64,000 nt of DNA from Candidatus Omnitrophota bacterium (GCA_028716165.1 JAQUQI010000001.1:126538-190537), one strand, 5' to 3'; positions 16,473 to 64,000 are shown, numbered from the stretch's first letter. Numbers and translations: made by a program. The notes: generated from the sequence alone by a model not told the origin.

Positions 16473-16850
16473 TTATTTCTTCTTACCCGGCATTCCGGCA
16501 TGCGAACTGACACTAGGGCCAGAAACCGCTTTGTATTCTCCTTTTTTATATTTCTCGACTGCTTCACTAACCGTACCCGAGGCTCCGGTAAATATCTCTA
16601 TTCCTGCCGCCTGCAATGTCTGAAAAGCGTTAGGCCCGACATTCCCGGTTACCACAGCTTTAATCTTTTTAGAAGCGACAAACTGCGCCGATTGAATACC
16701 CGCGCCGCCCATTGACTCAATATTAGGATTTTCGATCTCTTCAAATTCTAAAGTATCCGTATCAATAATAATAAAGTGCTGACACCTGCCAAAACGAGGA
16801 TCTACCTTAGAATCCAAACTGCCGCCCTCTGAAGTCACGCATATTCTCAT
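16473..16850 (-). CDS. dinitrogenase FeMo-cofactor biosynthesis domain protein (NifB/NifX/NafY-like)
   Basis: MRICVTSEGGSLDSKVDPRFGRCQHFIIID...AVVTGNVGPNAFQTLQAAGIEIF matches the typical PF02579 pattern. Confidence 0.8.
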   Translation of the reverse strand: MRICVTSEGGSLDSKVDPRFGRCQHFIIIDTDTLEFEEIENPNIESMGGAGIQSAQFVASKKIKAVVTGNVGPNAFQTLQAAGIEIFTGASGTVSEAVEKYKKGEYKAVSGPSVSSHAGMPGKKK

Positions 16851-16864
16851 ATATTTTCGCCTCC

Positions 16865-17263
16865 TTAATGGTCACAATCTTCTTTATGTGGATGGTCACA
16901 TTCATCTTTTTCTAAACCGTACCCCTTACCCGCTCCGGGCTTGCAAAGACTCTCGCCGCTTTCCAGCGTTCCTTTTTTCAGCTGTCCGATTACTTCGTCG
17001 ATTTTTACGCTTATCCCTACGATAGTCTTAATGCTGTATTCCTCAAAAAGTGACGTTGCCCGCGCTCCCATGCCACCGGCAATAATACAATTTACACCCT
17101 TTTTATGCAAAAACTCCGGAATCGCACCCGGCTGATGTCCGGGATTCGCTACTCCTGTCCTTTTCGTTACTTTGCCATTTTCGATGTCAACAAGGGTAAA
17201 AGTTGGACATCTACCAAAATGGGCAGACACAAATTCTCCATCTGTAGATATGGCTGCACGCAT
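16865..17263 (-). CDS. dinitrogenase FeMo-cofactor biosynthesis domain protein (NifX-like) with a His/Cys-rich tail
   Basis: AHFGRCPTFTLVDIENGKV...CIIAGGMGARATSLF is the family pattern. The C-terminus is CDHPHKEDCDH. Confidence 0.8.
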   Translation of the reverse strand: MRAAISTDGEFVSAHFGRCPTFTLVDIENGKVTKRTGVANPGHQPGAIPEFLHKKGVNCIIAGGMGARATSLFEEYSIKTIVGISVKIDEVIGQLKKGTLESGESLCKPGAGKGYGLEKDECDHPHKEDCDH

Positions 17264-55189: not shown

Positions 55190-56545
55190 AGTGTCAAGAT
55201 AATTGTGCACTTTCGTATTTAAGTTCAGATTGAATTAAGTCTTTAGACATATCCTCTAGTATTGTTATGTTAAGGTGCTTTATGATACCAAAGATCCATA
55301 AGTTTAAAGAGTGTTCGTTTTTAAAGTAACCCTGTATCCTATTTCTTCTTCGTATCTCTTCTATAAAGCGCTCTAAGTGGTTTGAGGTGCTTATTAAGTT
55401 TCTGTCCGCTTTCGGGAAGTCATAATAGTTCAAAATATTGATAAAGTTGTTTTGAAAGTTCTTGCAAGCCCTCGGTTCTTTATCCTGCCAGTTATATAAA
55501 AACCTGTTAAACCGGTTAATTGCCCTTTGTTTAGAAGGCTGCTGGTATATAGTCTTGGCCTGTTTTAGCATTTTAGCTCTGTGTTTACATTTATGCCTTA
55601 TATTTTGTAATAAGTTGCGTAATTTATGAGTATAGCAGTATTGCCTTTTGGCATAAGGATATACAGTATTAACAGCCTGGGTTATTGACTCAGAGCCATC
55701 TGCTATTATGCAATCTAAGCATTCCAGGCCACGTCTGTATAGATCATTTAAAAGTGACGTATATTCTGCCTTTGTTTCGCCTTGGGCCAGCTTAAAGCTT
55801 AAGAGCTCTTTCTTGTTGTCTTTGGTAACGCCTAAGGCAAAAAGAACAGGCCTTTGTCTTATGCTAAGCTCTTGTATATGCACCCACATGCCGTCAAGTA
55901 TAAGGTACTTGTAGTTATTAGCTATTGGCCTTTGCCTGTAGCATCTTAGCTCTTCTTTTAAGGCGTATAACAGGTTAGAAGCTGTGGCATGGCTTACAGA
56001 GTCTCCCATAACATGATAGAAGAGCTTTGACTGCTTACGCGTTGATAAGCCTAATATCACTGATAATGCTATGCAGTAATCCAGCCCCTTATGACGTCTT
56101 TGGTATGTGTCAAAGAGCTTGTATCTTAGCTTTGCATGCCTTGCCCGGGGTATTTTAACAGTTGCAGCACCGAATGTTGATGTAAATACCCTGTCATAAT
56201 AACCACATCTTACGTCTATCCTTGTATGCGTTCTCTGGTAAAGCTCTGCTTTAATAGCCTCCTGGAACTCTCTGTTAATGCTGTTTTGCATAACGCGCTG
56301 TATTATTAATCTTATATCAACTTCTAGTGAGTCTTGGGTAATAATACCTAAATCTGAAAGATTTCGCTTTACATATTGCCATTGTCTTGCGACCGTATCC
56401 TGGGAGAGGTCTAAGTCTCTCATGGGCATATCCTCCCTGGGACATCACGTCCCGGTTATTGTCGCTAATAACCAAAGGATATGCCTTTTTTATTGTGATT
56501 TCAATGAACTTTTATACTGAAAGTGCACAGAATATTTTACATTAT
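55190..56545. mobile_element. IS256-family insertion sequence (about 1.36 kb) with imperfect terminal inverted repeats
   Basis: The IR core TGTGCACTTTC at 55205-55215 matches its reverse complement GAAAGTGCACA at 56519-56529. Flanking bases are also similar (...ATAATTGTGCACTTTCGTATTTAAGTTC vs ...ATATTCTGTGCACTTTCAGTATAAAAGTTC). The repeats enclose a single transposase ORF. Confidence 0.7.
55194..56429 (-). CDS. IS256-family (mutator-type) transposase
   Basis: It is 411 aa with DDE-region motifs (LILDGMWVHI, IIADGSESITQAVNTVYPYAKRQYCYTHKLRNL, ISTSNHLERFIEEIRRR). Confidence 0.85.
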   Translation of the reverse strand: MPMRDLDLSQDTVARQWQYVKRNLSDLGIITQDSLEVDIRLIIQRVMQNSINREFQEAIKAELYQRTHTRIDVRCGYYDRVFTSTFGAATVKIPRARHAKLRYKLFDTYQRRHKGLDYCIALSVILGLSTRKQSKLFYHVMGDSVSHATASNLLYALKEELRCYRQRPIANNYKYLILDGMWVHIQELSIRQRPVLFALGVTKDNKKELLSFKLAQGETKAEYTSLLNDLYRRGLECLDCIIADGSESITQAVNTVYPYAKRQYCYTHKLRNLLQNIRHKCKHRAKMLKQAKTIYQQPSKQRAINRFNRFLYNWQDKEPRACKNFQNNFINILNYYDFPKADRNLISTSNHLERFIEEIRRRNRIQGYFKNEHSLNLWIFGIIKHLNITILEDMSKDLIQSELKYESAQLS

Positions 56546-56616
56546 GTTGAGGAAAAAACGTTTTTTTAATATGATCGTTTTACTGGGGGTATGAGGTATG
56601 CGAACAGACTATATAA

Positions 56617-59600
56617 TTACGCGGCTTTTTGCATTGCGCTGTTTCTATTTTTAAGGTTTCTAAGATTTGCAGGATTAATTCTGCTGCTTTTTATATCAAC
56701 AGCAGGCGCTGTGACCGTGGTTTCTTGTGGAGTCATCAACGTGTCAGGCGTAATGCTTCTCTGGGCATTAGCAGATGATAATAATCTCATAACAGCTTTT
56801 TCAAGAATCAGGCTTGAGCGCTGCTTTTGCTGCAGCCTCTGCAAAACAGGAAGTGCCCTTATATCTTCTATTCTGCCTAATACTTCAGCAAGGCCTTCCA
56901 TCTGGCTGAGACTGTTGGTCTTTTCTATTGTATCTAGCAAAACAGGGACTACTGCTTTCCCTTTTTCGGTTAGCTTCTGTATGGCTTTTTGCCTTTCGAC
57001 TAAAGCAAAGTTATTTTCCCTGGTTTGTTTTTTCTGCATTATATCAATATATGCATAAGAGCTCCATGGCCCCGCAGCTTCAGGCGCTTTTAATTCTTTT
57101 CGCAGGATTGAAGATAATTCTACTGACAGCCTTGATAAATCCTCAACCCAAACACCATTAGGATAAACCTTTCCCACTTGTTTAGCCTCCGGACCAATGC
57201 CTATACCAAATATTTTTATTCCTTTGGCTTCGCTAAATAATTTTTCTAATTCTTGCCTTTCCTGTGTTTCAGGCCTATCGGGATTACCATCTGTAATTAC
57301 TATAAGCATATCTTTATCGGTTCTTTTAAGGTGTTTCATTCTCTCAACTGCCTTGGCAATACAACCAGCATCAAAACGTGTATCTATACCTACGTTAGCT
57401 TCAATACCTTTAACCGTTTCAACTGCCTTCTTTCTTGTAACTCTCTCACCCAGCTTTTTAAATGGCAGATAGGGTGTGCGGTCATTAAAAATAGCGATTT
57501 CAAAATCAATGCCCGGGATGTCTTTTAATGCTTCCATCAAAAGAACGGTCCCTTCAATCGCTCTTTTGTATCTATTGGATTCGCGCTTCATACTATAACT
57601 TCCATCGATTAAAAGAACTATTCTATAATTAAATTTACCTATCTTAAGATTGCGTTGGAATATCCTGTCCGTGCCAGAAGGGATTTCTACTAAAGCATTG
57701 GGATCAATATCGCCAAAGGAACGGCTTGTTTGCATTCTATCTCTGGCTGTTTTTTGCAACACCATCAAAAGGTGCCTTCTTAAAACCAGAATAAACGGTT
57801 TAACAGCCCTAAGGTATACTTCATATTCTGCATTTTCGGCTCCTGTTACACCACCTCTTGAGATTTTTTCTCCTTCTAAAATAGCTTTTGCTTTTTCGCT
57901 TCTCTCTCCCAGGGTTTCTTTTGAGCCATCTGATTCGTCCGCAGCTTCAGCCAAAGCTTCCTTTAGTTGTTTGGCTCCTTTTTCGAATTGTTTGCTATAA
58001 GATTTCTCTTGAACAGTAAGATCTTCTTCGGGAAGCGTAGGGTTAGGAACCATTTTACCTTTAAATTCTTCATTGAATTTCTTTTCAGCCTCTTGCGTTT
58101 GGTCAACTGCAAGATTAGCTAACTCTTGCAGTTCTTCAGGTGTCATTTCTTCTAATTCTTTTTTTATTTTTTCTTGCAATTGCTCTTTTAGATCTTCTGG
58201 TATCTGATCCATAGGTAATGGTTTTCCGTTTTTATCAAGCACCTTATCTCCTAATTGTCCTTTTCCTGCCATCTTCTGCATCATATGATTGTTAATAGCA
58301 TTATCTTTTACTTCTTCGATTAGTTTTTCATATACGGGCCAGATTCTATCGCGGATTATTTCATAGCTTTCTCTAGAGCTCTCTGTAGAATAAGCAGCAA
58401 CAATATCTGGTTCGCATTGCTTAAGGGCGTCGATTACCCGCTGATTGGAAATCCTTGGATCATCTTCCCCCTTAAACCATTTATATATCAATCCATAACC
58501 AAATTGTAGATGCAGCGGAAGAGATTGAAATGCAGGCCTTTCTTCTTCTAAATTCTTAGTGTCATATCTTTCACCATATAACTTTTTAATCCATGGTCCT
58601 GCACCTCGATATCTTTTTATGCCAATATTATTTACACGCGAGTCTTCTATAGGATTAAGCAATGTAAAAAAGGAGCGATTTTGCCTGAATTCTTCATCCA
58701 TAACATCAGGATCGCTAAAGATTACATGCCATACTTCGTGCATGGTAATGGCTGAAGGTATATCTGCGTCTTTGTGCTCTAAGTCCTCAGGGAGATATTG
58801 AATCTGGTTTAATCCAAAAAGATAGCGCCAAGTCCTCATTGTATCATCTGGGGCCATTTGCTGCCAAGGAAGCATTTTTAATACTGGATTACTAGTAATA
58901 ATTCTAGCAAGGCCTTCCAGTAGTTGCAAAAGTTGTCGTGAAACATTAGAAGATTTATTAGAAGATTGTGAACTTGTTGGGTTTACCATATTAAACGGAA
59001 TGATTTTATTTTGATGCACTATAGGCGGAAATATAAAATTAGCTGTCGGTTTTTCGGGAGAAGATTTTTTACCTGTCAGTCCATACACCTCTAGTACCTT
59101 ATCAACCATTCCTTGGGCATTATCATTGATATATTCTAAGTTATAGGCTTTCTTAACTATAATTGCAATATCATCTTCTGGATAAATATTAAGGTGTCTA
59201 GCAATTCTTACTAAAGCTCTAGTAGAAAGCGGCCGGGGTAAAAGCCCATTTTTATAGGCAGTACGCAAATCAGTAGCAACTCTAATTAATTCCTTAAGCC
59301 GTGATACTTTTACTTTAGGCGCATATTTTTTTAAGACTATTATTTCTTCCTGTTCGGGTAAATACTCAATAGTATGCATACTAAATCTATCTTCTAATTC
59401 CCCTGATAATAGATTACCTATATAAGGGGGCCTGGGCGGGTTCATGGTAGCAAAAACTCTAAAATCTGGGTGAGCAGTAACTACCTCGCCATTTGGCAGG
59501 GTTACTTGTCTAAACTGGAGTATGTTGTTGAGGCTGGATAACACTCCTGGCTGAACCCTATCTATTTCATCTAAAATAATATAGGTGCCATTTCTCATTG

Positions 59601-62600
59601 CTTCAACCAAGACCGAGTCTGACCAGTTGGTCTTACCTTCCTCTTTTTCTCCAAAAGTCTGCCTGACTAAAAGGTCTTTTACGTCCGTATCTTCATTTAA
59701 TGACATAACCTTACACTCACGATTTAGGAGTTTGGCTAGATACAATACCAGAGAGCTTTTACCTGTGCCTGTTTCACCGACCAAAAGTGTGTTTTCACCT
59801 AAGATAACATCTTTGAGGAGTTCTTTGAGATATGAAAGGTTGGTAAGGGTGTGCTCTAATTCTATTTGCGGTACATACAAACCATCTTGCCCTCTAATCA
59901 TTTCCACATTTCCTATAGTTAAGTAGTCTTTCTGTTGATGATTAACTGTTTTAACCTTTACCTCGATACTAAGCTGCTGTGTAATCGGGTCATGGCCAGC
60001 TTCTAGGGCGCGGTTTCTCAAATCTTCTCCGGTTTGAGCATCTATTAGCCGCTGGTCTTTTGCGATATTCCAAACTTTAGCTACATCATCAAAGCCCCCT
60101 GAAACTATTTTTTCTTCATTTGGTGCAAAAGAAACCGAAGCTGCGGTACCTGAATGCGCCTGTAATGTTTTGGCTTTATTATGGACTATATCCCATATTT
60201 TAACTATTCCTTGTTCATCACCAGAAGCAATATATCCCGTATTAGACATTGACACAGACCAAACAGAACTGGTGTGGCCTCTTAATGTCTTTACTCGATT
60301 AGTTCTCAAATCCCATACTTTAACTGTTTTATCCATGCTCCCTGAAATAAGCATGTTCCCATCCCCTGAAAAAGCCAACGGCCCAACTGCGCCACTATGC
60401 CCACTTAATATCTGAACTCTATTGGTTCTTAAATTCCAAACTCTAATGACACTATCCCAACCCCCTGACGCAACAACTTCACCATTAGACGAAATAGCTG
60501 TTCCTTCTAACTCTTTTTCGTGACCGCTTAAAATCCGCACTCTACACGTGCTTAAATTCCAAACCCTAACTGTTTTGTCTCTGCTTCCAGTAACTAAAAA
60601 ATTTCCATTTTGAGAAAAACCAATTGTGCCAAGTATACTGTCTGTATGGCCTTTTAATACTTTGAATGTTCTATTTTCTAAATCCCATACTTTTAAACTG
60701 CCGCTAGGTCCTGCTGAAGCTATATATCTGTTATCAGGTGAAATAGCTATTGCCCAAATTTCAGTACCTTGATCCCCTAACGTATTGATTTCGTTTGTTT
60801 CTAAATTCCATAATTTTAATTTGCTATCTTTGCTTCCAGAAACAATCAAACCACCATCAGACAAATAAGCAACTGACATAACATCGTTGCTATGACCCTG
60901 AAGAATTTTTTCAATTTCAGTAACTGATATTCTTTCATCAGAAACAATTCTATCGGAGGAATTAACTTGTGGAGTAAAATTTGTTTCTTCTGCGTCATAG
61001 TTCTTTTCTTCTGGTGAAAAAGCCGATTCCTCTGGCGTAAAACCTATTTCTTCAGGTGCAAAATCCTGCCAAGGAGCTAAATTAAGCGGCAAGTTAGAAT
61101 CATGCTGAGCGGATTGAAGCACCGGCATAGTGGTTGTTTTGGTCTTTGCAAATTTATAAGGCTGTAATGCCTTTTCTACAGATGCTTGAGCGTCTATATT
61201 CAGGTATTCCAGATTGTAGGCCTTTTTAATAATAGCCATTACGTCATCGTGTGGGTATACTTCTAAATGCTTAGCTACTCTCACTAAGGCACGCGTAGAT
61301 AATGGCCTGGGTAAAAATCCCTGCTTATAAGAAAATCTTAAATTGTTAGCAGCATCAACCAATTCTTCCAGGACAAACTTGTCAACACCTGGTGCGTGAT
61401 TTTGCAAAACTGCAATTTCCTCTTCTTTGGGGAGATAGTCAATAGAGTAAATTGAAAATCTATCTTCTAATTCACCTGATAATAAATTCCCTGTATAAGG
61501 TGGTCTGGGAGGATTCATAGTGGCAAAAACTCTAAAATCTACATGAGCATCTACTACTTCTCCATTAGGCAATACGACTTGGCGGAATTGTAAAATATTA
61601 TTCAATACTGAAAGAACTCCTGGCTGAACCCTGTCTATTTCATCTAAAATAACATAATCTCCATTTCTCATGGCATCAACCAATACTGAGTCCGACCAGC
61701 CTGTTTTACCTTCCTCTTTTTCTCCAAAAGTTTGCCTTACAAGCAGATCTTTTATGTCTGTGTCTTCGTTCAAAGACATAACACGGCAACTACGATTTAA
61801 CAATCTAGCCAGATAGAGAACTAAAGAACTCTTTCCAGTGCCTGTTTCTCCTACCAGTAAGACATTTTCATTAAGAATAACATCCCTTAAAATATCTCTT
61901 AAATGGTTGATATTTGTATTTGTCTGTTCCAAGTCTATGCTTGGAACAAAGGATCCATCCTGGCCACGGTCATATGTTAGATCATCAATAACTAAAAATT
62001 CTTTATCTTGATTATCTATGGTTTTTTCAATAAAACGAATTCTCTGGGAAATTGTTTTTAATGAACTATATAATTCTAAAAGTTCTCTAACAGCTATTTC
62101 TTCTGTTCTTATAGTATGCATATGTTCTTCTGCGGATTGAAGCTCTGACTCTAATTTATCAATAGCGCCTCTTAAAGTATCCTTCACAATCTGAGCACCC
62201 TCGTGCTCTGCCTCAACATAGCTCAATCTTAACTCATTGAGAAAAGATGTCTTTTCACCTTTAATCTTTTCTGCTTTTTGTTTTTTTACTCCGCAATGTT
62301 CTAATTTTTTTTCGGCTATCTTTTCTGCCTCTTCTATAGTATCCTGATGGCCTATTTCTTCATATAATTGCTTTGCTGCTACTGATTGGGCGCTAATTAT
62401 ATTTTCTGCGCGTGTTGATAATTCGGCTTTTGTTTTTACCTCCACTTTCTTGGTTAATCCATACACCTCTAAAACTTTTTCCACTATTAGCTGCGCATCT
62501 GCATTAAGATATTCTAAATTATAAGCTTTCCTAATTGGAACATTAATATTTTCTTTAGCATACATGGCTAGATGTCGTACAATTTTCACTAACGCACGCG

Positions 62601-64000
62601 TAGATAATGGCCTGGGTAAAATTCCCTGCTTATAAGAAGCCCTTAAGTCGCTTGCTACATTAACTAATGATTCTAAAATTGCTTTATTGACATTTGGTGC
62701 ATAATATTGCAGCACAGCTATCTCTTCATCTTTAGATAAGTACTCAATAGTATGCATACTAAATCTATCTTCTAATTCCCCTGATAATAGATTACCTATA
62801 TAAGGGGGCCTGGGCGGGTTCATGGTAGCAAAAACTCTAAAATCTGGGTGAGCAGTAACTACCTCGCCATTTGGCAGGGTTACTTGTCTAAACTGGAGTA
62901 TGTTGTTGAGGCTGGATAACACTCCTGGCTGAACCCTATCTATTTCATCTAAAATAATATAGGTGCCATTTCTCATTGCTTCAACCAAGACCGAGTCTGA
63001 CCAGTTGGTCTTACCTTCCTCTTTTTCTCCAAAAGTCTGCCTGACTAAAAGGTCTTTTACGTCCGTATCTTCATTTAATGACATAACCTTACACTCACGA
63101 TTTAGGAGTTTGGCTAGATACAATACCAGAGAGCTTTTACCTGTGCCTGTTTCACCGACCAAAAGTGTGTTTTCACCTAAGATAACATCTTTGAGGAGTT
63201 CTTTGAGATGAAGTCTATTTGTAGGAGTTAAAGGTAAATTTATGTTAGGAACAGAGATATCCCCTCTACCTCTTTCAAATTCTAAATCATCTAACTTAAG
63301 ATACTCTATGCCATTTTTATTTTGAATTGATAGATCTTTATCTCTTGGCAATGCAGATTTTTCTAAGCCTAAGGCAGAAGAACTATCGCCTGCTTGCCAA
63401 ATTATAGCAAATTTATCCAGCCATCCTTGATCTACTGGAAAAATTGAAGGTGGGGCATATCGCGAATCAACTTGGCTTAAAGAAACAATATATTCTTTCT
63501 TATCTTTTCCTTGTATCAAAAGATGCAACAAATCACCAAATTTCTCTATAGTAATAGGCATCGATTTAATAGAAAAGAATTGATATCTATTCCTATATGC
63601 TTCTTTAAGTTGTGTAAAATTAGAAATTAAGCCGCTTAACCAGACCTCTCTGTAATCATAAAGCTCTGCATATGCCTTGACCCCTCTAATCACCCTATCA
63701 AAGATTTCTTTTGCTTCTTGTTCTGTCTTTACTGGAAATTCTTTGGAAACCGCGAGACCTTGTGCTGCTTCCCATGGCACTTGAATTGCATCAACTATTA
63801 AGATGGGCGCAGGATCTTTACCCTGCTGTTTTTTTATTGCAGAAATAACGTAAGCGTTCCCAATCCATGTATCTCCTTTCATAATCTTAAAGTTCAAGAA
63901 CGCAGGATCTAATATATGCCTGGGAGTAGTGTATTTAAATTTAGGGGACTTTGGATTGGTAGAGTCACCACTAATATTGCCTCTGCTTAAATCTTCTTTG
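56617..64000 (-). CDS. giant multidomain protein (>2,460 aa, N-terminus beyond the window): 3x MoxR-like AAA_5 ATPase, 7-blade WD40, HExxH metallopeptidase-like plus VWA/MIDAS (DUF2201-like), C-terminal HEAT-like repeats
   Basis: The ORF is open from 56617 to the window edge, and the track's start at 63897 is a TTG with an open frame upstream. It has three Walker-A LLVGETGTGKSSLVLYLA modules at about 63.2, 61.85 and 59.78 kb, each followed by DEIDRVQPGVLS and ATMNPP. Seven WD40 blades lie at about 60.13-60.90 kb. The HEVWH motif is at about 58.74 kb, and MIDAS LLIDGSYSM...ITDG at about 57.2-57.64 kb. The C-terminus has HEAT/PBS-like repeats. Confidence 0.8.
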   Translation of the reverse strand, partial: KEDLSRGNISGDSTNPKSPKFKYTTPRHILDPAFLNFKIMKGDTWIGNAYVISAIKKQQGKDPAPILIVDAIQVPWEAAQGLAVSKEFPVKTEQEAKEIFDRVIRGVKAYAELYDYREVWLSGLISNFTQLKEAYRNRYQFFSIKSMPITIEKFGDLLHLLIQGKDKKEYIVSLSQVDSRYAPPSIFPVDQGWLDKFAIIWQAGDSSSALGLEKSALPRDKDLSIQNKNGIEYLKLDDLEFERGRGDISVPNINLPLTPTNRLHLKELLKDVILGENTLLVGETGTGKSSLVLYLAKLLNRECKVMSLNEDTDVKDLLVRQTFGEKEEGKTNWSDSVLVEAMRNGTYIILDEIDRVQPGVLSSLNNILQFRQVTLPNGEVVTAHPDFRVFATMNPPRPPYIGNLLSGELEDRFSMHTIEYLSKDEEIAVLQYYAPNVNKAILESLVNVASDLRASYKQGILPRPLSTRALVKIVRHLAMYAKENINVPIRKAYNLEYLNADAQLIVEKVLEVYGLTKKVEVKTKAELSTRAENIISAQSVAAKQLYEEIGHQDTIEEAEKIAEKKLEHCGVKKQKAEKIKGEKTSFLNELRLSYVEAEHEGAQIVKDTLRGAIDKLESELQSAEEHMHTIRTEEIAVRELLELYSSLKTISQRIRFIEKTIDNQDKEFLVIDDLTYDRGQDGSFVPSIDLEQTNTNINHLRDILRDVILNENVLLVGETGTGKSSLVLYLARLLNRSCRVMSLNEDTDIKDLLVRQTFGEKEEGKTGWSDSVLVDAMRNGDYVILDEIDRVQPGVLSVLNNILQFRQVVLPNGEVVDAHVDFRVFATMNPPRPPYTGNLLSGELEDRFSIYSIDYLPKEEEIAVLQNHAPGVDKFVLEELVDAANNLRFSYKQGFLPRPLSTRALVRVAKHLEVYPHDDVMAIIKKAYNLEYLNIDAQASVEKALQPYKFAKTKTTTMPVLQSAQHDSNLPLNLAPWQDFAPEEIGFTPEESAFSPEEKNYDAEETNFTPQVNSSDRIVSDERISVTEIEKILQGHSNDVMSVAYLSDGGLIVSGSKDSKLKLWNLETNEINTLGDQGTEIWAIAISPDNRYIASAGPSGSLKVWDLENRTFKVLKGHTDSILGTIGFSQNGNFLVTGSRDKTVRVWNLSTCRVRILSGHEKELEGTAISSNGEVVASGGWDSVIRVWNLRTNRVQILSGHSGAVGPLAFSGDGNMLISGSMDKTVKVWDLRTNRVKTLRGHTSSVWSVSMSNTGYIASGDEQGIVKIWDIVHNKAKTLQAHSGTAASVSFAPNEEKIVSGGFDDVAKVWNIAKDQRLIDAQTGEDLRNRALEAGHDPITQQLSIEVKVKTVNHQQKDYLTIGNVEMIRGQDGLYVPQIELEHTLTNLSYLKELLKDVILGENTLLVGETGTGKSSLVLYLAKLLNRECKVMSLNEDTDVKDLLVRQTFGEKEEGKTNWSDSVLVEAMRNGTYIILDEIDRVQPGVLSSLNNILQFRQVTLPNGEVVTAHPDFRVFATMNPPRPPYIGNLLSGELEDRFSMHTIEYLPEQEEIIVLKKYAPKVKVSRLKELIRVATDLRTAYKNGLLPRPLSTRALVRIARHLNIYPEDDIAIIVKKAYNLEYINDNAQGMVDKVLEVYGLTGKKSSPEKPTANFIFPPIVHQNKIIPFNMVNPTSSQSSNKSSNVSRQLLQLLEGLARIITSNPVLKMLPWQQMAPDDTMRTWRYLFGLNQIQYLPEDLEHKDADIPSAITMHEVWHVIFSDPDVMDEEFRQNRSFFTLLNPIEDSRVNNIGIKRYRGAGPWIKKLYGERYDTKNLEEERPAFQSLPLHLQFGYGLIYKWFKGEDDPRISNQRVIDALKQCEPDIVAAYSTESSRESYEIIRDRIWPVYEKLIEEVKDNAINNHMMQKMAGKGQLGDKVLDKNGKPLPMDQIPEDLKEQLQEKIKKELEEMTPEELQELANLAVDQTQEAEKKFNEEFKGKMVPNPTLPEEDLTVQEKSYSKQFEKGAKQLKEALAEAADESDGSKETLGERSEKAKAILEGEKISRGGVTGAENAEYEVYLRAVKPFILVLRRHLLMVLQKTARDRMQTSRSFGDIDPNALVEIPSGTDRIFQRNLKIGKFNYRIVLLIDGSYSMKRESNRYKRAIEGTVLLMEALKDIPGIDFEIAIFNDRTPYLPFKKLGERVTRKKAVETVKGIEANVGIDTRFDAGCIAKAVERMKHLKRTDKDMLIVITDGNPDRPETQERQELEKLFSEAKGIKIFGIGIGPEAKQVGKVYPNGVWVEDLSRLSVELSSILRKELKAPEAAGPWSSYAYIDIMQKKQTRENNFALVERQKAIQKLTEKGKAVVPVLLDTIEKTNSLSQMEGLAEVLGRIEDIRALPVLQRLQQKQRSSLILEKAVMRLLSSANAQRSITPDTLMTPQETTVTAPAVDIKSSRINPANLRNLKNRNSAMQKAA
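59363..59831. repeat. 469-bp intragenic direct repeat, copy A (AAA module 3)
   Basis: By eye alignment it matches 62741..63209 base for base. The identical antisense ORF prefixes 59585.. and 62963.. in the track corroborate this. Confidence 0.8.
62741..63209. repeat. 469-bp intragenic direct repeat, copy B (AAA module 1)
   Basis: It is identical to 59363..59831. The middle AAA module (about 61.3-61.9 kb) is similar in protein but diverged in DNA. Confidence 0.8.

Follow-up and report, generated by a model that had tools for sequence, protein, structure and literature searches.

How can two ATPase modules of a single gene be identical base for base over several hundred nucleotides, when the segments flanking them are homologous as well and yet strongly diverged? 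The question is raised by a stretch of 64,000 nucleotides (nt) from Candidatus Omnitrophota bacterium (GCA_028716165.1, JAQUQI010000001.1:126538-190537), hereafter called the window and numbered from its first letter, whose high-coordinate end is occupied, on the minus strand, by the C-terminal part of a very long open reading frame (ORF) encoding three AAA_5-type ATPase modules, named M1, M2 and M3 in the order in which they are translated. The alpha/beta cores of M1 and M3 share a perfect repeat of 469 bp, which is attributed here, with a probability of roughly 0.8, to recent non-reciprocal homologous recombination, i.e. ectopic intragenic gene conversion, between old paralogous modules. As the minus strand is the coding one and the gene runs off the window, the "AAA module 1" of an initial annotation of this DNA can only be the first visible module, and M1 is used in that sense throughout.

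The exact repeat

The initial annotation had described a perfect in-frame repeat with copies 3,378 bp apart that encode the same 156 amino acids (aa), and the alignment bears this out without a single mismatch: 469 of 469 bases agree between window 59363-59831 and 62741-63209, the spacing is 3378 bp (3 x 1126), and both copies, in frame, are translated into the same peptide, at residues 265-420 in M1 and 1391-1546 in M3 (numbered from window base 63999). The two copies and the motifs read in them from the sequence are as follows:

62741..63209, minus strand: putative conversion tract, M1 copy (aa 265-420), a complete AAA+ alpha/beta core enclosing the Pfam AAA_5 match at aa 278-413
63133-63156, 62938-62955 and 62761-62778, minus strand: Walker A, Walker B and ELEDRF motifs of the M1 tract
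59363..59831, minus strand: putative conversion tract, M3 copy (aa 1391-1546), an identical core
59755-59778, 59560-59577 and 59383-59400, minus strand: Walker A, Walker B and ELEDRF motifs of the M3 tract

Along the same diagonal, identity falls to 0.55-0.68 over about 300 nt on the low-coordinate side, where the lid lies, and to about 0.5 over about 120 nt on the high-coordinate side, upstream of the core; further out it is at the random level (0.2-0.35), and at base level the edges of the tract are abrupt at both ends. In a self-comparison of the whole 64 kb the pair is the sole long exact repeat. Apart from it, one exact match of at least 20 bases is present, a 28-mer shared by the lids of M2 and M1 (window 61289-61316 = 62594-62621, in a region of local M1-M2 identity of 0.76-0.80), which may be the remnant of an older conversion between these two modules.

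The length of the identical run was evaluated by a runs test of the Sawyer type (the logic of Sawyer and of GENECONV), in which 342 polymorphic sites were permuted 100000 times. At 123 consecutive polymorphic sites M1 equals M3 and M2 is different, the longest run found in the 100000 permutations being 23; moreover, even at a background identity of 80%, the probability of 469 matches in a row is below 1e-45.

Divergence of the flanks and of the middle module

Codon-aligned comparison of M1 with M3, in terms of nt identity, proportion of differing synonymous sites (pS) and nonsynonymous divergence (dN), gives the following values:

27 codons upstream of the tract: 49% nt identity, pS 0.68, dN 0.70
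Tract (469 nt): 100% nt identity, pS 0, dN 0
100 lid codons downstream: 63% nt identity, pS 0.71, dN 0.34

The flanks of M1 and M3 are therefore homologous, collinear and in register, and their synonymous sites are saturated. A tract with zero differences inside such flanks supports gene conversion: the identical stretch is embedded in collinear homologous sequence that is far more diverged, the concordant run exceeds the permutation expectation, and the histories of tract and flanks are discordant, the paralogy being the older of the two. The segments against which the tract is compared are:

62440..62740, minus strand: M1 lid (alpha-helical, CbbQ_C-like), after the M1 core; diverged paralogue of the M3 lid
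59060..59362, minus strand: M3 lid, after the M3 core; orthologous to the fragment L057 (see below)
61435..61902, minus strand: M2 core, unconverted (aa 700-855), with 123 nt differences from the tract; Walker A (61828-61851) and Walker B intact

The middle module had been said to be similar in protein and diverged in DNA, and so it is: M2 is about 87-90% identical to the tract in protein and about 74% in nt (pS 0.71-0.72, dN 0.14), the 123 differing sites being mostly synonymous, and outside the core it shows 50-60% nt identity to M1 and M3. Since the M2 peptide is so well conserved while its DNA is saturated, protein constraint cannot explain the DNA identity of the tract.

Age and direction of the proposed transfer

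The age of the paralogy can be gauged from L057, a 1278-bp contig of another metagenome (JGI 3300048658) that shares 75% DNA identity with window 59667-58423, to which it is orthologous, and that spans the M3 core into the C-terminal region. The lid of L057 has a dN of 0.12 from the M3 lid and of 0.36 from the M1 lid and, likewise, 0.36 from the M2 lid; since it groups with M3 and not with M1, the split of M1 and M3 is older than that of the L057 and window lineages, and on this comparison M1 and M3 are old paralogues. Between L057 and the orthologous M3 lid the synonymous sites are already saturated (pS 0.73), and over the shared part of the tract DNA identity is 78%; since orthologous synonymous sites are saturated and the two copies of the tract show 0 differences in 469, the tract is far younger than the M1/M3 split.

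In the core, the dN of L057 is intermediate (0.075; paralogues 0.11-0.12). Near the distal end of the tract L057 shares residues with M2 (PYTG, SIY.IDYLP) and not with M1/M3 (PYIG, SMHTIEYL), and these M2-like residues give a weak hint that M1 may have been the donor and M3 the recipient. An attempt to read the direction from synonymous divergence (dS) gave no answer, L057 being too diverged and its synonymous sites saturated.

Gene conversion would have consisted in copying the alpha/beta core DNA of one module (469 bp) over its counterpart in the other, beginning some 15 codons ahead of Walker A and ending immediately past ELEDRF, and would have erased roughly 120 differences at least. The mechanism envisaged is a RecA-dependent ectopic recombination between the cores with non-crossover resolution, in which the heteroduplex would be confined to the sole segment where the paralogues are similar enough (about 75% in the core, if M2 is taken as a proxy for the state before conversion); the tract would then end where similarity drops to 50-60%, that is, proximally in the segment upstream of the core and distally in the lid.

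Architecture of the gene and its neighbourhood

The product of the ORF combines multiple AAA_5 modules with WD40, HExxH, vWA and HEAT regions, of which the vWA domain carries a metal ion-dependent adhesion site (MIDAS):

56617..64000, minus strand: C-terminal 2460 codons of the very long ORF; stop codon at 56617-56619, frame open to the window end (no stop from 63999 down)
60040..60927, minus strand: seven-blade WD40 beta-propeller between M2 and M3, inside the 3378-bp interval; Pfam WD40 x7, E 3e-57
58726..58743, minus strand: HExxH motif MHEVWH, between M3 and vWA; read from the sequence, and conserved in L057 and in the relatives P0002, P0098, P0243 and P0250
57187..57621, minus strand: vWA domain; PF00092, E 2e-8; MIDAS DxSxS = DGSYS at 57592-57606
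56791..56994, minus strand: C-terminal HEAT-like repeats, weak; PF13646 HEAT_2, E 0.003, under the curated cut-off

Read from base 63999, the visible protein begins with an N-terminal segment without assignment (aa 1-263). M1, M2 and M3 come next, their Walker A motifs standing at aa 282, 717 and 1408; a linker separates M1 from M2, and the WD40 propeller occupies about aa 1025-1320, between M2 and M3. The HExxH region follows (motif at aa 1753-1758), and beyond a charged linker come the vWA domain, whose DxSxS MIDAS is at aa 2132-2136, and finally the HEAT repeats. Pfam AAA_5, the dynein/midasin/MoxR-type family, matches in three stretches (E 1.4e-90), and Walker A (GETGTGKS) and Walker B (ILDEID) are intact in all three modules. 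The lid is of the CbbQ_C type: PF08406 matches that of M2 (E 1.5e-6, 28.8 bits, cut-off 20.6), and the lids of M1 and M3 align to it. The blades of the propeller, with a period of 123-126 nt and 61-80% identity, are not homogenised. Across the family the HExxH motif (AITMHEVWH) is followed by a conserved EDxRVNN, the two standing between the last AAA module and vWA; this region gave no family match in Pfam and possibly represents a metallopeptidase-like domain, to judge from its motif. The C-terminal region gave no match when compared by sequence with the PDB.

The visible N-terminal segment (aa 2-139, window 63583-63999) resembles residues 1743-1884 of P0275, a midasin-like protein of 7557 aa (37% identity, E 1e-24); as the match is to an internal domain of P0275, the gene probably continues far upstream, well beyond the window. 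A gene start at the window edge was considered and rejected, the N-terminal 263 aa having no similarity to the signal-peptide N-domain of the relatives P0001, P0002 and P0126.

Downstream of the long gene, the next gene encodes a transposase of the IS256/Mutator family (window 55194-56429, minus strand; PF00872, E 1e-73). The minus strand carries nearly all long ORFs of window 1-64000. GC skew is negative along its entire length, the cumulative skew going steadily down to -4.9, and in the long gene GC content drops to 0.36-0.40 from about 0.46. An exact look-up of a neighbouring protein returned no record.

Relatives: probable recurrence of core homogenisation and number of modules

The closest full-length homolog, with 39% aa identity, is P0001, a protein of 2600 aa encoded on the 44-kb contig L001 (ENA ERZ28669879), in which an AAA module with a WD40 propeller after it is repeated as a unit four times. 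In DNA the modules show 81-87% identity, distributed as a mosaic, and modules 2 and 4 share an exact in-frame run of 413 nt (L001 12860-13272 = 16760-17172, offset 3900) that extends from codon 8 to codon 145, counted from the beginning of the LLVGE motif that closely precedes Walker A; on the same scale the tract of the window runs from codon -14 to +142, i.e. over the same subdomain. A second exact in-frame run, of 132 nt, is found at L001 14537-14668 = 16481-16612. In both proteins the pair with the long identical tract consists of non-adjacent modules, 1 and 3 in the window protein and 2 and 4 in P0001. Concerted evolution of the ATPase cores thus appears to be a recurrent feature of the family.

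The expectation that the number of modules varies among relatives proved correct:

1 AAA module: P0002, P0250, P0243, P0246
2 AAA modules: P0005, P0020, P0255, P0265, P0276, P0284
3 AAA modules visible: the window protein
4 AAA modules: P0001
About 4 AAA modules, partial sequence: P0098
About 6 AAA modules: P0003, P0275

From this variation it follows that module duplications do occur in the family. The nearest named relatives belong to metagenome-assembled genomes (MAGs) of "Candidatus Omnitrophica/Omnitrophota". An exhaustive search with the HExxH-vWA region, covering 1.84 billion representatives, retrieved 203 proteins at E <=1e-10, 23 of them at E <=1e-30, many being stand-alone proteins of about 600-700 aa and others fused in proteins of 1400-7557 aa; in L056 the HExxH-vWA partner is a separate gene adjoining the AAA_5 gene. 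A search of GTDB genomes with the module alignment returned only generic MoxR genes of about 30% identity, and the pattern LVGE[TR]GTGK, with at least 600 matches, is too common to be of use in finding relatives.

Two further observations concern the sequences of these relatives. In P0001, P0002, P0126 and P0250 the Walker A motif reads GERGTGKN, in which Asn replaces the canonical Ser/Thr, the window modules having the canonical GETGTGKS; judging from this substitution, such modules may be impaired in the binding of Mg-ATP. The WD40 blades of relatives (L002 6925-7710, which corresponds to P0002, and L001) share about 75% nt identity with one another and near-identical DGKIISGS.D.TIRIWD peptides, and those of the window, at 61-80%, are much more diverged.

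That the repeat would trouble short-read assembly was also foreseen; what was found fits this circumstantially, the relatives being mostly fragments and one contig of an Omnitrophota MAG, L058 (GCA_043823375.1; 10001-11233), ending inside a homologous gene exactly where the core terminates distally ("...ELEDRFLL"). Such an end point is what a de Bruijn assembler would be expected to produce if an exact core repeat were there too, a circumstantial indication.

Alternative explanations

Several points weigh against recent conversion as read here. That the identity is exact is known from a single assembly; exact searches with a 60-mer from the tract (genome and metagenome contig collections) and with a 38-mer from the interval (metagenome contigs) gave 0 matches each; neither copy is spanned by an independent contig in the collections searched, a protein fragment matching M1 or M3 at 100% was not found, and no close ortholog (>90% identity) with all modules turned up by which the event could be dated or its direction fixed. 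The tract of P0001 likewise rests on assembly, its contig having a coverage of only 2.9x according to the contig name. An artefact of assembly or polishing, in which bubble-popping or multi-mapped short reads gave similar cores one consensus or, at the extreme, the assembly path ran twice through one collapsed repeat, would yield precisely an exact 469-bp identity, in a family whose genes do fragment in short-read assemblies. However, each copy runs in frame, on both sides, into homologous flanks of its own, so that two cores in two contexts must exist; homogenisation needs near-identical copies, and reads do not cross-map at about 74%, the level of M2; and the independent assembly of a relative as distant as P0001 has the same kind of tract. 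Moreover, a short-read contig of the same population, L055 (JGI 3300037067), which has 1 mismatch in 2323 bases (99.96%) against window 56450-58772, so that the population of the window has been sampled independently, falls short of the tract by 590 bp and at its other end stops at window 56450, beside the IS256-family element, a likely repeat which the contig of the window crosses; this suggests that the assembly of the window was able to resolve repeats. Since polishing acts only on near-identical copies, at worst the repeat would be nearly perfect and the inference of a recent conversion would stand: polishing could have removed a few differences, it could not have produced the tract. An artefact is accordingly regarded as improbable.

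Gene conversion or duplication had both been offered as the origin of the repeat, and of the two it is conversion that stands. That M3 or M1 was newly copied from the other by a segmental duplication is in keeping with the varying module number of the family (1, 2, 3, 4, about 6), but a fresh copy would be identical up to non-homologous junctions, and here the identity stops inside the module, between flanks that are homologous in register and yet saturated (pS about 0.7, dN 0.34-0.70); furthermore, the M3 lid is far closer to its ortholog from another species than to the M1 lid, which places the split far back, and a recent duplication is therefore very unlikely. Even less credence is given to selection at the nucleotide level without recombination, exerted by an embedded RNA or regulatory element or by extreme codon constraint: nothing specific speaks for it, although no part of the protein is more conserved than the one encoded here, and it has to contend with an M2 core that keeps 87-90% of the peptide and differs at 123 mostly synonymous sites, with L057, whose DNA identity over the shared part is just 78%, and with an Rfam scan of the window that gave no match; independent mutation could not have preserved 469 of 469 bases.

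Comparison with known systems

Both intragenic gene conversion and concerted evolution among repeated modules are well-established phenomena (PMC5120217, PMC12222747, PMC4986451), examples being the WD40, ANK and TPR repeats that show "high internal conservation" in the NLR genes of fungi (PMC12222747, PMC4986451), and the horizontal versus vertical evolution of repeats has been analysed in general terms (PMC5120217). As in the known cases, paralogous in-frame units of one gene are homogenised in DNA, identity is mosaic, the number of units varies and short-read assemblies break. Unlike the short structural repeats of the fungal NLR type (30-45 aa), however, the unit here is a catalytic ATPase core of 156 aa, and unlike known concerted repeats the copies are non-adjacent, 3.4 kb apart, with the intervening M2 untouched and the WD40 blades of the same protein not homogenised. 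What is less usual is thus the whole catalytic AAA+ core as the unit, the sparing of the middle paralogue, and the recurrence in a relative of 39% identity. In the two preprints on giant genes of Omnitrophota neither the AAA_5/WD40/vWA architecture nor gene conversion is described.

With midasin (Rea1/MDN1) the protein shares several MoxR-class AAA_5 modules in one chain, a long linker and a C-terminal vWA/MIDAS; among the matches listed in a comparison of the module with PDB sequences, midasin AAA domains are the best (49-71 bits), followed by CbbQ, CobS and NorQ. Midasin matches the AAA modules only, over 5-13% of the query in most cases and about 24% at the maximum, and the overall architecture is not that of a midasin ortholog, which would have neither inserted propeller nor HExxH region: here M2 and M3 are separated by an inserted WD40 propeller, the chain includes an HExxH region, and the host is bacterial, probably a member of Omnitrophota to judge from the nearest named relatives. 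Midasin, in addition, has six modules in a one-chain ring, old and individually specialised, whereas in the window protein three are visible, the gene running off the window, and two of the cores are identical.

The second comparison is with the MoxR-vWA pairs (CbbQ/CbbO, NorQ/NorD, CoxD/CoxE, RavA/ViaA), in which an AAA_5 core with a CbbQ_C lid goes with a vWA/MIDAS partner. The window protein has the features of the MoxR class, namely an AAA_5 core with intact Walker A and B, a lid of the CbbQ/NorQ type and an associated vWA with MIDAS; in contrast to the pairs, where single-module ATPase subunits assemble into a homo-hexamer, one chain here carries several ATPase modules and, fused to them, the vWA. 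The ternary conflict systems of MoxR, vWA and beta-propeller (Kaur et al. 2020, PMC7159879) likewise bring these three components together as a functional unit, but the present protein falls outside them, its propeller having seven WD40 blades and lying N-terminal to the vWA, within the ATPase array of a single polypeptide. Taken together, its domains predict a fused and multiplied chaperone-type machine of the MoxR-vWA kind, midasin-like in layout; if it works as MoxR-vWA systems do (PMC7159879), its AAA ring would use ATP hydrolysis to remodel a substrate bound at the MIDAS site.

Significance

The process itself is known and the locus is a further example of it, which alone opens no major question; it is a clean and datable case in which catalytic cores evolve in concert and lids, linkers and a third module diverge. 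In practical terms the repeat is a trap for annotation and assembly, as short-read assemblies can be expected to break or collapse at it and mapping to be ambiguous over 469 bp at two places. The in-frame copies are also a substrate for deletion or duplication of a 3378-bp block of 1126 codons (M1 lid, linker, M2 and WD40), and they predict variation of module number within the population.

A bolder proposal is that homogenisation of the cores is both recurrent and functionally relevant in the family: it may mean that equivalent catalytic sites are selected at alternating positions of the ring, or that these proteins represent an early, still concerted stage of single-chain AAA rings such as midasin and dynein, with the 469-bp repeats acting in addition as a recombination switch by which the 1126-aa block is gained or lost. 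This proposal is tentative and, on balance, doubtful. What can be said more firmly is that M1 and M3 have identical catalytic cores, so that multi-module bacterial midasin-like proteins can keep some of their ATPase sites interchangeable, an observation relevant to the origin of the single-chain AAA+ rings of midasin and dynein from homo-oligomers.

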